A DNA stretch of 64,000 nucleotides from NCBI RefSeq assembly GCF_011045215.1, contig NZ_CP049201.1. One strand, 5' to 3'. The stretch comes from Escherichia coli (GTDB lineage Bacteria > Pseudomonadota > Gammaproteobacteria > Enterobacterales > Enterobacteriaceae). Positions 8,833 to 15,926 of the stretch are shown here, piece after piece; the stretch's first letter is position 1; every line of letters starts with the position of its first letter. The position numbers were made by a program, and so were the translations under genes. Under the pieces are notes generated by a model, which was not told the DNA's origin, searched no databases, and was given only the letters and a program-made list of their open reading frames with translations.

Positions 8833-8846
8833 TCCGTCCTGCAATA

Positions 8847-8874
8847 CTGACGGATGCGAACGGGCATCCGTCAG
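8847..8874 (+). terminator. hairpin downstream of grxD
   Basis: CTGACGGATGC-GAACGG-GCATCCGTCAG 11-bp stem directly after grxD stop; weak U-tract. Confidence 0.5.
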
Positions 8875-8882
8875 TCCTTTAT

Positions 8883-11800
8883 CTATCCCCAATCCAGCCC
8901 TTGTGGCGAACTTGAAAATCCCGCCTCACGCAGCAGCGTAAACATCGGCGTTTGCCGGACCGGTAGATCATTCACTTCTGTTAGCGTAAAGCGCAGCCGT
9001 GGTTCGCGACGCAGTGCGGTAGTCAGCGCGTGGAAAACCTCTGGGGCGAGTAATTCCTCTTTTTCCTGCCAGACCAGCATTTTTTTGCCACCTTGCGCCA
9101 GATAGAGTAACAATTTGCCGCCAGAAACGACCACCAGCGCACCCGCCCGACGCGTTGGTACCAGCGTTGCCGGATGTGCAGGCCAGGGCAGAAGATTTCC
9201 CCACACATTAGCCGGATCGTTGGCGGAGAGCGCCACTGGTGTATAGTGGCGCGTTTGCGCGGCTTGTGTCGCCAGGTCGCGCAAGCGGTCAATAGTCAGA
9301 CGTTCAGCGAATTGCGCGCCACCCAGACCTTCTACAAAACGACCTCGCATAATTCGCCCGGAGTCTTCCATACTTCGACAAAGCGTTTGCATCGATGGAA
9401 ACCCGCCAGGGATATTTTCGGCTATCACCGCCTGACGACTGATGATGCCGTAGCGGTCGAGCATATTTTCCGCCAGCGCCAGCATCCTTTCGGTATCGTT
9501 TAGTGGCTCCACCTGCAATAACGACCAGCGTCCAGCCAGATTTGGTGTGTTGTAAGATACCCGCGGCGAGACGGGTTGTGCATAGACAGGACGCCCACGA
9601 CGAGCCCGGTGACTGCGGCGAGTTGAGGTGCGTGCGTTGGAACTGCTGCGGGTGAGGGCGCGTAACGGTGCCCAAATATCGCTGGTGATGACGCCTTGCC
9701 AGACCAGCGCCCATAACGCCTCTTGCAGTGCCGAGGGATCAACCGATTCGCCGATTTTGTCGCGTATCCGTTGGCTGATTTGTTGTGCAAACCAGGCTCC
9801 TCCGTCAGCCAGAACAGCGACTATCGCTTGTTGCAGCGCCGAACGATTCGCCTGATCCGCTTCGGCGGGAGTGAACGATTCTGCAGCATATTCCTGTAGA
9901 TGCAGTGCCACCAGGCCGTCATCTTCACCCAGTTTTTTTTGCCCCGACCAGATAACCGCACCGGTTGCCAGTAATTCATCGAGCATTTCTGGCGAATAGT
10001 CGCGTACGCGGGCAGGCAGGATCTGGCTTTCCCAGAGTGAGGCGGGTAAGCCGACTCCGGCAAGCTGTTCGATTACCCGCATCACGCCATCTACGCCCTC
10101 ATAAACGCCTGGCGATGTTGAGGCAAAGAGCGCCGGGCTACCATCGGTGGCGGGTAATACGCCCTGACGTTCCAGCAGCAATCGCGCATAGGTCGTGGCT
10201 GCAACGGGACGCGTCGCTTCTCTGGCGGCTTGCAGCGAGCGCAAACGCAGACGACGAAATACTTCATCGCTCACCCAGATGTCTTGTTGCAGATTCATCA
10301 CCAGACCCTGTTCGCGCAGTTGCTGAAGCTGCTCTTCGACAATGGCAATACCGAGACTAAACTCATGAGCCAGTTGTTCAGCCGTGACCAGAGCATGAGC
10401 CCGGAGATAGCGCAGAAAGAGGTCGCGAAGCGGGTAACTGACTCTATGCAAATAAATCTCTGGCAGAGACTCTGGTAGTTGTACGCCGAGGGCATCGCGC
10501 AGCCTGGCGGCATCATCCATACAGGCAAGACGCTCCTGTCCGCTAATCATCGCCGGGAAGATTCGTTTTACTGTAAGAAGATTTTCCAGATACGACGCAA
10601 TCTCTTCACTGCTGCCTGTATGCCGTTGCGCCAGGTCTTCAACGGTCATTGGCCCCAGTTCGCGCAGCAGGTCGAACAATCCTTCTTCACCTTTCGCTCT
10701 TCTGCCAGGAGCCAGTCGTTGCAACTCTTCTTCCACCTGGCGAATGACCTGCGGGTCGAGTAATTCCCCGGATCGACCTGTCCGAGTAGATTGCGCAGTA
10801 ACTCGCTGTCCAGCGACAGTACGGATGCCCGGCGCTCTGCCAGCGGGGCGTCGCTCTGGTACATAAATTCCGCGACATAGCCGAACAATAAACTTGTGGC
10901 GAAAGGCGAGGGCGTAGTAGTCGTTACATCGGATATTTGAATTTCGCCACCGTTCAGGCGACGCATCAAACGTTCCAGTGCGGGAAGATCATAAACATCT
11001 TGCAGACATTCGCGTAGGGTTTCGAGAATGACCGGAAAATCCGGATATCCCTGAGCGATTTCCAGCAACTGACTGGCGCGCAGCCGTTGTTGCCAGAGCG
11101 GGGTGCGATGGCCCGGCGTGCGGCCCGGCATTAATAACGCCCGCGCGGCGCATTCGCGAAAACGGGCGGCGAAAAGTGCTGAGCTGCCTACCGCCTCGCG
11201 GACAATTTGCAGCAACTTTTCTGGTTCAAACAAAAAAATCGCGGCGTCGGGCAATTTACCATCAGTGTCAGGAATGCGCGCAACAATGCCGTCATCACTG
11301 GCGACCACAGACGCGTCAGCGCCCCATAGCGCATGTATTCGCCCGGCAATCGCCAGCGCCCAGGGTTCATGCACCCGTCTTCCATAGGGAGAGTGCAAAA
11401 TAATACGCCAGTCGCCAATTTCATCACGGCACCGTTCGAGGACCAGATGACGACTCCCCGGAACGATGCCCGTCGCGTTGCGCTGCTCGTCAATCAACCC
11501 CTGAATATTGGCGATCGTATTTTCTTCAGCCAGCCACGGGGGAATAGTCCCGGAAAAGAACGCGCCATCCGCCAGTAAATGAAGAAAATCGCCGATCATC
11601 TCGCCTAATTCAGCCGGACGTCCGTTACCTTCACCACGCCAGAAGGGGAGCCGGGCAGAACGACCCGGAGCAGGAGTCACAATCACCTGATCGCGGGTGA
11701 TTTGCTGTATCCGCCATGAGGTAGCGCCGAGAGTGATAATGTCGTTCACCCGCGACTCATATACCATCTCCTCATCCAGTTCACCCACCCGCCGCGAACC

Positions 11801-13498
11801 GGCCTGTTCTTCACCTTCGGGTAATAACACGCTATACATGCCACGATCCGGAATGGTGCCACCGCTGGTAACCGCCAACAGCTGAGCGCCAGGTCGGGCG
11901 GTCAATATCCCGGTCTCCCTGTTCCAGACCAGTTTTGGTCGAAAAGCAGAAAAATCGCCAGAGGGATAGCGCCCGGAAAGCATATCCAGCGTGGCGTCAA
12001 AAACACGTCTTGGCAGATCTTTCCACGGTGCGGCACGGCGTACGCGGGAGTACCATTCGTCTACCTGTAATGCATCCATCGCCGCGGCGGCAACGGTTTG
12101 CTGCGCAAGGACGTCGAGTGGATTATGCGGAGGTGTCAGGTTTTCCAGCCTGCCTGCGAACATACACTCTACAATGACTGCGGAATCGACTAAGTCACGC
12201 CGGGTTCGGGGGAAAAAAAGCCCTTTGGAGATACCTCCTACCTGGTGTCCGGCACGTCCAATGCGTTGTAACCCACTGGCAACAGAAAGCGGCGTTGCCA
12301 CCTGAATCACCAGATCCACCGCGCCCATATCAATCCCCAGTTCGAGACTGGAAGTTGCGACCACGCAGCGTAATTCACCCGATTTCAGCGCCTGTTCGGT
12401 GATTGCTCGTTGTTCTTTAGAGACGGAGCCGTGGTGTGAGCGGGCAATAAAAACGTCGCTACTTTGTACACGGTTAGAGGTTGCGCCGGAGGTCGACTCG
12501 AAATGGGCCACATCAACGGCGATAGAAGGGGAACGCTGTAAGCGTGCGGCGTAAAGCTCATTTAATCGTGCCGTCAGTTTTTCCGCCAGCCCCCGCGAAT
12601 TAGTAAAGACAATGGTCGAGCGATGGCGCAACACTTCATCAAGGATACCCGTTTCAATATATGGCCAGATGGAGCCTTCCCGGCCGGCATGGCTGTCTTC
12701 GCCAGTGCCGCTGGCGACCGATGAGACATCATCCATATTGGCGACCGGTACGACAATCCGTATCTGCGGATAGCGCATTGCGGGTGGGTTGACTACCGTA
12801 ACCGGGCGATCGCCGCCAAGAAATGCTGCCACATCGCTGGCTGAGCGCACAGTGGCAGAAAGGCCAATTCGCTGTGCTGAGGTGTGGAGCAGCGCATCGA
12901 GCCGCTCCAGACTTAACGCCAGATGCGCGCCACGTTTACTGCCCGCTACCGCGTGGACTTCATCAATAATTACCGTTTCGACGCCGCGTAGCGTTTCGCG
13001 CGCGCGGGAGGTCAGCATCAGATAGAGTGATTCGGGTGTGGTGATCAGAATATCCGGCGGATTACGGGTGAGTTTGCTGCGTTCCTGTGCAGGCGTATCG
13101 CCAGTACGGATCCCCACGCGAAGATTGACTTCCGTTTCGCCGCGCCGCCGCCGTTCATCGGCAATACCCTTCAACGGGATCTGCAAGTTGCGCTGAACGT
13201 CGGTGCCCAGGGCTTTTATCGGTGAAATATAGAGAATGCGTGAGGTTTTACGCTTATGCGCCTCGCGGGTATCTTCGCCGCCTTCGCGGAAGAGCCGATC
13301 GAGGGCGTAGAGAAATGCTGCCAGCGTTTTCCCGGAGCCGGTCGGTGCAATCACCAGCGCATGTTCGCCTCGCGCCGCCACATGCCAGGTTTGCGACTGG
13401 ACAGCGGTCGGCTGTTTAAAGGCGCTAAGAAACCAGTCGCGGGTCGCCGGTGAAAACACGTCCGGCAGGGGCGATGAAAGGTTTGGATTATCTGCCAT
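8883..13498 (-). pseudogene. lhr: lhr (large ATP-dependent helicase-related protein) disrupted by -1 frameshift
   Basis: Two overlapping ORFs (950 aa at 10646..13498; 617 aa at 8883..10736) in different frames; total span 4616 nt is one nt short of the 4617 needed for 1538 aa + stop; frame change maps to C4 run at 10756-10759 (GATCCGGGG on coding strand). Confidence 0.8.
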
Positions 13499-13590
13499 TA
13501 ACGCTATTCCCCGTGAATATCATGCATGATGCGTGGAATAGCCTCACTATAGATGCCTGAATCATTGCATGTCATCAGGCATCGACTCGA

Positions 13591-14238
13591 TTACACCTCT
13601 TCGGCGGCAGGTAGCGGCCAGCCTCCCAGACGTTTCCAGCGGTTGACGATTTCACAAAACAGCACCGCAGTGCGTTCGGTGTCGTACAGCGCGGAGTGCG
13701 CCTGGGTGCTGTCGAAGTCCATGCCAGCGGTCTGGCAAGCCTTTGACAATACGGTTTGTCCGAGTGCCAGCCCGGCCAGTGCAGCAGTGTCAAAAGTGGC
13801 GAAAGGGTGGAACGGGTTACGTTTCAGTGAGGCGCGTTCTGCGGCGGCCATCATAAAGCTGTGATCGAAATTGGCGTTGTGCGCCACCATAATGGCGCGG
13901 TTACAGCCGCTCGCTTTAATACCTTTACGTACAACTTTAAAAATTTCGTGCAGCGCCTCGTATTCGCTGACCGCGCCGCGATCGGGATCGTTCGGGTCAA
14001 TGCCGTTGAAGGCAAGGGCTTCTGGTTGCAAATTTGCGCCGACAAATGGTTCGACGTGGAAATGTAATGTGGTGTCCGGCATCAGCCAGCCTTGTTCATC
14101 CATTTTCAGGGTGATGGCGGCAATCTCAAGCAGCGCATCGGTTTTGGCGTTAAATCCGGCTGTTTCAACATCGATCACAACAGGATAAAAACCACGAAAA
14201 CGGTCGCACAGACCGGTAAGTTGAGCGTTATCGGACAT
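13591..14238 (-). CDS. rnt: ribonuclease T
   Basis: 215-aa ORF, DEDDh exonuclease motifs, recognised as RNase T. Confidence 0.95.
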
Positions 14239-14340
14239 CTGATTCTCTTAATACGGATAAATTGCAGCGCGCATTATGACAAATATTACTTGTCGATGCA
14301 GTAAAGATGCGGGCGCGATGAGTTCGCGCCCGGCAGGAGA

Positions 14341-14748
14341 TTAGTTGCCCAGACCGCGACCGGCGTCTTTCTCTTCGATTAACTCAATTTTGTAACCGTC
14401 CGGATCTTCCACAAACGCGATAACCGTAGTACCGCCTTTTACCGGACCCGCTTCACGGGTCACGTTACCCCCATTTTGACGGATTTTTTCGCACGCTTCA
14501 GCGGCATTATCTACGCTAAGCGCGATGTGACCATAAGCAGTGCCGAGTTCGTATTTATCCACGCCCCAGTTGTAGGTCAGTTCAATCACCGCTTCTTCGG
14601 TTTCCGGGCCGTAGCCAACAAACGCCAGTGAGTATTTGTATTCCGGGTTTTCGCTGGTACGCAGCAGTTTCATGCCCAGAACTTTGGTATAAAAATCGAT
14701 GGAGCGTTGCAGATCGCCAACGCGCAGCATGGTATGAAGAAGACGCAT
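14341..14748 (-). CDS. gloA: glyoxalase I (lactoylglutathione lyase)
   Basis: 135-aa [29 protein letters not shown], recognised as GloA. Confidence 0.96.
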
Positions 14749-14828
14749 CTTTTTATCCTCAAAATGGCTAACAGATTCAAAATGTTGTTTTAGTATAGCG
14801 GCGGCTTTACGCCGCTCGCAATGTTGGA

Positions 14829-15926
14829 TTACAACGTCGGGTAATCAGTGTAGCCTTCCGCACCGCCACCATAGAAACTTTCAGCACGCTGTGGGTTAAG
14901 CTCAGCTTTGCGCTGCAAGCGGGCGACCAGATCCGGGTTCGCAATCCAGTCACGACCAAATGCCACCGCATCAATTAACCCTTTGCCAATCAGCGTTTCG
15001 GCTTTTTCTACCGTGTATGCACCTGCGCCGATAATCGGACCGTGGAAACGTGCGCGTACTTTTTCGCGGAACGCATCAGTATACGGTTCACCTCCCGCCC
15101 AATCTGGTTCTGACATATGCAGATAAGCAATGCCGCGTTTACCCAGTTGTTCAATCAGATACAGTGCATCGGCTTCTTCATTCGGGCCGTTATCTGTGTT
15201 CTGGAAAGTACCGATTGGCGAAACGCGAATGCCAATGCGATCGGCACCCCATTCTTCAATCCCTGCATCGACCACTCCCAGCACCAGACGTGCGCGATTT
15301 TCCACGCTGCCGCCGTACTGATCGGTACGATGGTTTGAAGAAGGAGAAAGGAACTGATGCAGCAAATAACCGTGAGCAGAGTGGAGCTCCACCAGATCAA
15401 AACCGGCTTCACGCGAGTTAGCAATGGCCTGACGGAAATCATTGACGATACCTGGAATCTCTTCCAGTTCAAGGGCACGCGGCATGGATGTTTCAACGCG
15501 GATCGCCTGACCATTTTCATCGCGCAGAGAAGTACGTGTTCCCGCGCTAAGTGCTGAAGGCGCTACCGGTGCCTGACCGCTAGGTTGCAGGCTGGCGTGA
15601 GAAATGCGTCCAGTGTGCCACAGCTGTACGGCCATATGCCCATTTTCAGCATGAACGCCAGCGGTAATTTTTTTCCATGCGGCAATTTGTTCCGGACTAT
15701 GGATGCCAGGTGCACCAGCATACCCTTTTGCCTGGGCAGAAATTTGCGTGGCTTCGCTAATAATCAAACCGGCACTGGCACGTTGGCGATAGTATTCCGC
15801 CATCAACGGGGTAGGGATGTCACCCGGTTCAATACTGCGCAGACGCGTCAGCGGTGCCATAAAAATACGGTTTGCCGCAGTTATTGCGCCCACTTTCAGT
15901 GGGGAATACAGTTTTTCAGATGACAT
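14829..15926 (-). CDS. nemA: N-ethylmaleimide reductase (OYE family)
   Basis: 365-aa old-yellow-enzyme-like ORF in nemR-nemA-gloA arrangement. Confidence 0.95.

Follow-up and report, generated by a model that had tools for sequence, protein, structure and literature searches.

The spacer that separates rnt, the gene for RNase T, from lhr in Escherichia coli carries a perfect palindrome directly downstream of the rnt stop codon, and the comparative evidence, which is moderate in strength, indicates that the palindrome most likely works as a single-stranded stem-loop in the sense RNA of the rnt-lhr transcript. RNA polymerase reads through this structure, which we call hairpin 1 and which does not serve as an attenuator. 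A stabilizing or translation-modulating function is the most likely one that we infer for it. Our tentative proposal is that hairpin 1 could close off the rnt cistron at its 3′ end as a read-through, REP-like barrier and that, together with a second hairpin in front of lhr, it would lower lhr expression relative to rnt.

Organization of the rnt-lhr locus

The window is the whole stretch of E. coli DNA that was analyzed, 64,000 nt in length. Both rnt and lhr lie on its minus strand, separated by a spacer of exactly 92 nt (13499-13590), and its rnt is identical to the annotated rnt of E. coli PapM-32-1 and K-12. The features of the locus are:

14310-14332, minus strand: gloA terminator, CGGGCGCGA-5-TCGCGCCCG, then a T-rich tail
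14238..13591, minus strand: rnt (RNase T) coding sequence, from the ORF list, with stop codon TAA at 13593-13591
13552..13583, minus strand: hairpin 1, with 9-bp perfect arms and a 14-nt loop, 7 nt past the rnt stop
13546..13575, minus strand: sigma-70 promoter-like match, 10/12 in a consensus scan, overlapping hairpin 1
13503..13542, minus strand: hairpin 2, GCUAUUCCACG-18 nt-CGGGGAAUAGC, -15.4 kcal/mol
8883..13498, minus strand: lhr, with ATG at 13498-13496, in two ORFs (13498..10646 and 10736..8883)
8846..8875, strand not assigned: hairpin between the lhr and grxD stops, 12 bp, ACTGACGGATGC-6-GCATCCGTCAGT

The gloA terminator, just upstream of the rnt promoter, is a canonical intrinsic terminator and agrees with a K-12 Term-seq 3′ end at 1728279 (+) (PMC7815308). 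At the other end, the hairpin at 8846-8875 forms the downstream boundary of the lhr segment and a 3′-end site of grxD. It lacks a clean U-tract, and its K-12 homologue is a very strong grxD 3′ end in Term-seq (scores 805,628 and 274,110; PMC7815308). The G+C content of lhr is ~57%, compared with ~50% in the neighboring genes.

Structure of hairpin 1

The palindrome was first described as GATGCCTGA-N14-TCAGGCATC, with 9-bp perfect arms, in the 92-nt gap between rnt and lhr, and this description is correct as written. On the window strand the full element reads GATGCCTGA-atcattgcatgtca-TCAGGCATC. On the mRNA, the 5′ arm GAUGCCUGA (13583-13575) is followed by the loop UGACAUGCAAUGAU and the 3′ arm UCAGGCAUC (13560-13552), the order from the rnt stop codon onward being UAA-UCGAGUC-GAUGCCUGA-UGACAUGCAAUGAU-UCAGGCAUC-UAUAGUGAGG. 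Five of the nine base pairs are G-C, and a 40-nt RNA containing the hairpin folds with -14.6 kcal/mol (z = -3.1 relative to shuffles).

The window holds 20 perfect inverted repeats with arms of 9 bp or more and a loop of 3-20 nt, as against 4.1 +/- 1.9 in Markov simulations. Such repeats are thus about five times commoner than simulated, and about one-fifth of those in the window could be due to chance. Because only ~0.006 would be expected per 92 nt, hairpin 1 is unlikely to have arisen by chance in the spacer. A permissive cmscan of 12500-15000 against Rfam 15 found no family at hairpin 1, the only hit being a chance snoRNA match elsewhere.

Conservation and covariation

A 301-nt query around the site found a match in 5,425 of 5,426 complete E. 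coli genomes, PapM-32-1 being the best at 100%, and the 81 nt around hairpin 1 are identical in 3,887 of the 5,425, including K-12 MG1655. In the LF82-type variant, which is common in E. coli, the stem is lengthened to 10 bp. Among nine Escherichia sequences (E. coli and E. albertii), none of the 18 arm positions of hairpin 1 varies, compared with 4 of the 14 loop positions (p = 0.028). When the two hairpins of the spacer are pooled, the variable positions are 2 of 40 in the arms versus 9 of 32 in the loops (p = 0.009).

All 11 distinct rnt-lhr spacers contain a hairpin of -11 to -17.6 kcal/mol that starts 5-11 nt past the rnt stop. Besides E. coli, the lineages with the hairpin are E. albertii, a relative with 77% Lhr identity (L091), E. 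fergusonii and the Citrobacter amalonaticus/farmeri group. The E. coli-type and Citrobacter-type hairpins have a GCCUGA/UCAGGC core in common, and the outer pairs differ on both sides between lineages (GAU/AUC, AAU/AUU, AUG/CAU). The forms are:

E. coli: GAUGCCUGA / UCAGGCAUC
Relative with 77% Lhr identity: AAUGCCUG...CAGGCAUU, outer G-C changed to A-U
Citrobacter type: UGCCUGAUAA / UUAUCAGGCA
Citrobacter type: GGCCUGGUAA / UUAUCAGGCC
Citrobacter type: AUGGUCUGAUAA / UUAUCAGGCCAU
Citrobacter type: GCCUGAUAGCC / GGUUAUCAGGC
Citrobacter type: GCCUGAUAGC / GUUAUCAGGC
E. fergusonii: hairpin of unrelated sequence at the same place

In alignment A2, 96.5% of the cells are paired and four pairs are altered on both sides, and 0 of 500 shuffles were as good. 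In the hairpin-only alignment A4, 87.5% are paired, compared with 21-39% when the partners are slid, and three outer pairs are altered on both sides. Pairing of the stem is kept with differing sequences in L091 and in five Citrobacter-type spacers, the surrounding Citrobacter spacer being 82% identical. On the rnt-sense strand, the four non-Watson-Crick pairs of the Citrobacter-type stems are without exception G.U; none is A.C, which is what the same positions give on the other strand. In every lineage the sense fold is at least as stable as the antisense fold, by up to 4.1 kcal/mol.

Taken together, the invariance of the arms next to a variable loop, the pairing kept in distant rnt-lhr lineages and the placing of G.U pairs on the sense strand point to a sense-RNA structure, and they support the RNA hairpin that the initial annotation had read in the palindrome, within a small sample (9-11 distinct sequences with few independent changes, the Escherichia ones being closely related). 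That annotation had also named conservation of the hairpin as a check and a lack of covariation as a refutation. A stable hairpin is present in all of the rnt-lhr lineages found, and in most of them it has the common core with covarying outer pairs, but the E. fergusonii sequence is unrelated.

Decay of lhr in E. coli

As originally noted, lhr is frameshifted in the window. Relative to PapM-32-1, the nearest genome, and to K-12, a G5 run at ~10766-10770 (codon ~909) is contracted by one base to G4, splitting the gene into ORFs of 950 and 617 codons at a distance of ~2.7 kb from hairpin 1. The contraction could be a true mutation or a homopolymer sequencing error. The additional idea that the hairpin is relevant to the frameshift does not stand, as the same hairpin occurs in thousands of genomes with an intact lhr and in 1,040 genomes that have lost nearly all of lhr; the two are unrelated, and lhr decays often in E. 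coli.

The deletion, internal to lhr and ~4.4 kb long, is shared by 19% of the complete E. coli genomes (1,040 of 5,425), among them LF82 and the type strain ATCC 11775. It leaves ~110 nt of the 5′ end of lhr and 126 nt of the 3′ end (LF82, L105 805-1033), remnants that PGAP labels as 'endonuclease' and 'ATP-dependent helicase' pseudogenes. The 1,040 lhr-deleted genomes keep the spacer and hairpin 1, with the 10-bp stem, and hairpin 1 is therefore tied to rnt rather than to lhr.

Alleles of lhr also differ in sequence. Over the first 150 residues, Lhr of the window (13049-13498) is 88.7% identical to that of SCPM-O-B-8794 (L002 3741-4190), RNase T being 100% identical, and E. fergusonii Lhr is just 73% identical to E. 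coli Lhr. Judging from such comparisons, lhr alleles show unusual divergence, which perhaps stems from recombination with other species.

Possible origin of the rnt-lhr-grxD gene order

A search with RNase T gave 81 species loci, among which lhr lies downstream of rnt in E. coli and E. albertii only. In 78 other Enterobacterales loci lhr is absent, as in Klebsiella, which has no lhr orthologue between rnt and grxD, and these two genes are usually convergent neighbors. At 29 of the 78 lhr-less loci there is a common bidirectional terminator, AAAAGCGACC...GGTCGCTTT, that starts 0-31 nt past the rnt stop. A search with Lhr found the rnt-lhr-grxD order also in E. fergusonii, the relative with 77% Lhr identity, cryptic Escherichia clades and Shigella, as well as in the C. 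amalonaticus/farmeri group, where Lhr is 73-75% identical. The presence of the order in that group and in the 77% relative led us to drop the notion that lhr downstream of rnt is an Escherichia-only arrangement. In Phytobacter, lhr is at another locus.

This distribution puts lhr and its leader at the site of the ancestral rnt/grxD terminator in lineages that are patchily scattered, which suggests insertion or replacement by horizontal transfer. Because lhr sits where most Enterobacterales have the rnt/grxD terminator, the rnt-lhr operon looks like a by-product of insertion. The insertion would have removed the rnt terminator, and since lhr-less loci have a terminator at that point, hairpin 1 would in Escherichia be the sole remaining structure to show where the rnt message ends.

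Resemblance to REP elements

Hairpin 1 is REP-like and possibly REP-derived, judging from its sequence. The REP consensus, as given in PMC12306157, is GCC(G/T)GATG...ATC(C/A)GGC, or in a fuller form GCC[G/T]GATG...CTTATC[C/A]GGCCTAC. The arms of hairpin 1, ATGCCTGATG...TCAGGCA, resemble this consensus with arm-level matches of 8-10 nt only, and the Citrobacter-type arms GGCCTGATAA...TTATCAGGCC resemble the Z-type REP GTAGGCCTGATAAG...ATCAGGCA. Like a REP, hairpin 1 is extragenic and lies directly past a stop codon, 7 nt after that of rnt. A further likeness is to the malE-malF REPs, which are situated on an operon transcript whose upstream gene needs more product than its downstream gene.

The differences are considerable. 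Hairpin 1 is single-copy: the 81-nt query finds one place per genome, GCCTGA-N4-24-TCAGGC occurs once in the 64-kb window, and hairpin model R1 has no further convincing matches in ~200 kb. There is no G+C-rich center, the 14-nt loop being A+U-rich, and the 3′ flank is CTAT rather than CTAC/GTAG, the transposase tetranucleotide, with GAGTC as the 5′ flank. The Z-type REP of K-12 malE-malF, GTAGGCCTGATAAGACGCGTCAGCGTCGCATCAGGCA, which served as a positive control, scores 14.5 bits against the covariance model of the hairpin set, compared with 37-42 bits for its members. Being single-copy and having neither a G+C-rich center nor a GTAG/CTAC tail, hairpin 1 is not classed here as a REP; consensus alignment and the covariance model gave a likeness at the level of the arms only.

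These resemblances also allow a reading in which hairpin 1 has no present function and is a relic that the transcript merely carries along, derived either from a REP that has decayed or from the former rnt 3′ flank and stranded when lhr replaced the rnt/grxD terminator. Apart from the likeness of the arms to the REP consensus and to the malE-malF REPs, REP-like palindromes are found right past the rnt stop in other genera (e.g., GCCGGGTAAGCGCAGCGCCACCCGGC in Enterobacter), and the lhr-less Citrobacter sp. R56 has TTTATCAGGC 5 nt past the stop. The rnt 3′ flanks of lhr-less genera in general show weak homology to hairpin 1, with a best z of 4.2 among 156 comparisons. No Term-seq 3′ end is found at the hairpin (PMC7815308), and the Escherichia sequences are too close to one another for arm invariance to prove much. 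If hairpin 1 did descend from a REP, its self-complementarity could reflect properties of REPs or independent insertions rather than local selection. However, a relic would not be expected to have stems significantly less variable than its loops, to keep its pairing with different sequences in L091 and the Citrobacter-type spacers, or to have mismatches that are all G.U on the sense strand, and we regard this explanation as rather unlikely.

Transcription through the spacer

There is no U-run after the stem of hairpin 1 on either strand, the stem being followed by UAUAGUGAGG, and a terminator scan did not call the structure. The K-12 Term-seq lists of Adams et al. 2021 (PMC7815308) contain no 3′ end for rnt or the spacer; the name 'rnt' is absent throughout, and consecutive entries pass from gloA at 1728279 (+) to grxD at 1733706/7 (-). 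In the K-12 transcription start site (TSS) map of Kim et al. 2012 (PMC3415461), there is one start for rnt, 28 nt upstream of the ATG, and none for lhr, the next entry after rnt being grxD. Some further TSS, Term-seq and operon supplements have no entry for rnt or lhr. The pattern of 3′ ends and start sites fits a single rnt-lhr transcript. Reuven and colleagues are likewise said to have described, in 1995, the co-transcription of rnt and lhr.

Because hairpin 1 has no U-tract, and K-12 has neither a Term-seq 3′ end nor an internal start site here, we conclude that RNA polymerase reads through the structure. An intrinsic terminator was rejected for the same reasons and for the size of the loop (14 nt, compared with the usual 3-8 nt), and the suggestion in the initial annotation that the hairpin might act as an attenuator, uncoupling lhr from rnt, is not supported in view of the full set of these observations: the missing U-tract, the long loop, the silent terminator scan and the absence of a Term-seq 3′ end and of an lhr start in K-12. 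It should be noted that rnt is weakly expressed, with 22 TSS reads compared with 100 for grxD (PMC3415461), and given this low expression a weak rnt 3′ end could be missed by the Term-seq calling threshold.

A milder version of the termination idea is that hairpin 1 is a weak terminator or attenuator, a pause site or a Rho-entry site, such that only part of the rnt transcripts reach lhr. Hairpin 1 does occupy the position of the rnt terminator in other genera, the relative P0074 (L098) has a homologous hairpin followed by AUUUUUCUU, and the adjacent lhr/grxD hairpin yields a strong 3′ end despite having no clean U-tract. Nevertheless, the E. coli stem has no U-run behind it and a long loop in front of it, neither the terminator scan nor Term-seq detects an end, and rnt and lhr are reportedly co-transcribed, all of which make even partial termination improbable.

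Alternatively, the palindrome could act as DNA, by providing an operator to which a dimeric regulator binds and which overlaps a promoter of lhr inside the spacer; we likewise consider this improbable. The sigma-70 match consists of a -35 element, ATGACA (13575-13570), in the loop, an 18-nt spacer and a -10 element, TATAGT (13551-13546), directly past the 3′ arm. A -10-like TATCAT occurs at the same place in L091, and Citrobacter-type spacers have an invariant LexA-box-like site, so lhr can have its own regulated promoter. On the other hand, the K-12 map shows no lhr start (PMC3415461), the 1.6 kb scanned gave four promoter matches where 1.0 +/- 1.1 were expected, with this one not above the others, and no equivalent match was called in L091, E. 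fergusonii or C. farmeri. The confinement of mismatches to G.U pairs favors a single-stranded structure of the sense strand, and the hairpin of the Citrobacter type is distinct from its LexA-like box. An internal promoter or operator was set low on account of the missing lhr start and the lack of conservation of the match, and the sigma-70 match is probably inactive.

The Citrobacter-type spacers deserve a comment of their own. They are 142-146 nt long and contain the invariant LexA-box-like sequence CTGTATATTTGACCAG (L089 2409-2424, with homologous positions in L096-L099) together with a second invariant block, CATTTCCCGCTATTCTGTAAAAAGG; the LexA operator pattern CTG-N10-CAG is absent from the E. 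coli spacer. The box suggests that lhr may be SOS-regulated in the Citrobacter type.

Hairpin 2 and the start of lhr

The only Shine-Dalgarno-like run of the spacer (GGGGA) is in the 3′ arm of hairpin 2, and 4 nt separate the end of this hairpin from the lhr AUG. Pairing in hairpin 2 is retained by a compensatory change of A-U to G-C in E. fergusonii and as G.U in L091. From its position and pairing, hairpin 2 probably keeps lhr translation low.

The two loops of the spacer, 13520-13537 and 13561-13574, are complementary to each other, forming a predicted duplex of -10.5 kcal/mol in E. coli (p ~0.001 relative to shuffles) and of -13.4 kcal/mol in LF82-type strains. The relative with 77% Lhr identity also has complementary loops, with a different sequence pair. 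The complementarity could reflect kissing contacts between the loops, duplication of a palindromic motif, or chance. As an alternative fold, the loop-loop pairing was rejected, having -19.1 kcal/mol compared with -30.0 for the two hairpins and being broken in some E. coli lineages (e.g., strain STEC346). It is a very remote prospect that hairpins 1 and 2 constitute a bipartite, ribosome-actuated switch coupling lhr to rnt translation. Such a switch would begin with the melting of hairpin 1 by a ribosome as it terminates at the rnt UAA 7 nt upstream; a loop-loop rearrangement could then open hairpin 2 to expose the lhr Shine-Dalgarno sequence.

Two other observations concern this region. A small ORF of 24-25 codons (13473-13565, minus strand), which runs from an AUG in loop 1 to a UAA 8 nt inside lhr, is uninterrupted in three lineages (E. 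coli, E. albertii and the 77% relative); lacking a Shine-Dalgarno sequence, it was judged to be probably a chance ORF. Through a deletion of 15 nt (L085 214-230), E. coli CFSAN004176, in which lhr is a pseudogene, has lost the 5′ arm of hairpin 2 along with the final base of TATAGT. Deletions of this type are found in few genomes, the 80-90% identity band holding 5 of the 5,425.

Possible role of hairpin 1 and comparison with known systems

If hairpin 1 is the REP-like barrier that we tentatively propose, the following scenario can be envisaged. The hairpin would be transcribed within the rnt-lhr co-transcript, 7 nt past the rnt stop codon, and the long, weakly translated lhr segment would be expected to be cut or prematurely terminated. 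Exonucleases proceeding in the 3′-to-5′ direction would then halt at the stem, sparing the rnt message. Hairpin 1 may also influence the termination of rnt translation, because its stem lies within reach of a ribosome at the rnt UAA; such an effect has been reported for REPs whose distance to a stop codon is below 16 nt (Liang, Rudd and Deutscher 2015, as cited in PMC12306157). Together, the two hairpins would hold Lhr output low relative to RNase T, and a role in setting the expression of rnt and lhr apart is plausible. A counterpoint is that a strong stabilizer should give a 3′ end, and none is assigned to rnt (PMC7815308). No published experiment on hairpin 1 was found in the literature covered, which did not extend to the original rnt and lhr papers.

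Taken alone, hairpin 1 matters little, as it just adds another REP-like stem-loop to an E. coli operon that has been studied extensively. If the stabilizing or translation-modulating role is true, it would explain how one promoter can serve an RNase that the cell needs together with a 170-kDa helicase that is dispensable.

Three kinds of known structures invite comparison. The first is the bidirectional rnt/grxD terminator of other Enterobacteriaceae, AAAAAAAGCGACC-loop-GGTCGCTTTTTT, which has the same genomic position and a G+C-containing stem; hairpin 1 differs from it in its long loop, in the lack of a U-tract on both strands and in not being homologous in sequence. The second comprises 5′ hairpins that sequester Shine-Dalgarno sequences. 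Hairpin 2 is like these in its UUCC 5′ arm, its GGGGA 3′ arm and a pairing kept by compensatory change, but it has no known trigger, such as a ligand, temperature or an sRNA, and it may simply set a low, constitutive level of lhr translation.

The third and closest to our proposal is the class of intercistronic stabilizing hairpins. REP hairpins protect malE, which is located upstream of malF, and the hairpin of the Rhodobacter puf operon is likewise an intercistronic element that stabilizes mRNA. Hairpin 1 differs from such hairpins in having no called Term-seq 3′ end. It is like those of malE-malF in being a stable, read-through stem-loop that has the promoter-proximal gene on one side and a long gene, distal to the promoter, on the other, and in this sense hairpin 1 is an ordinary, known kind of intergenic element.
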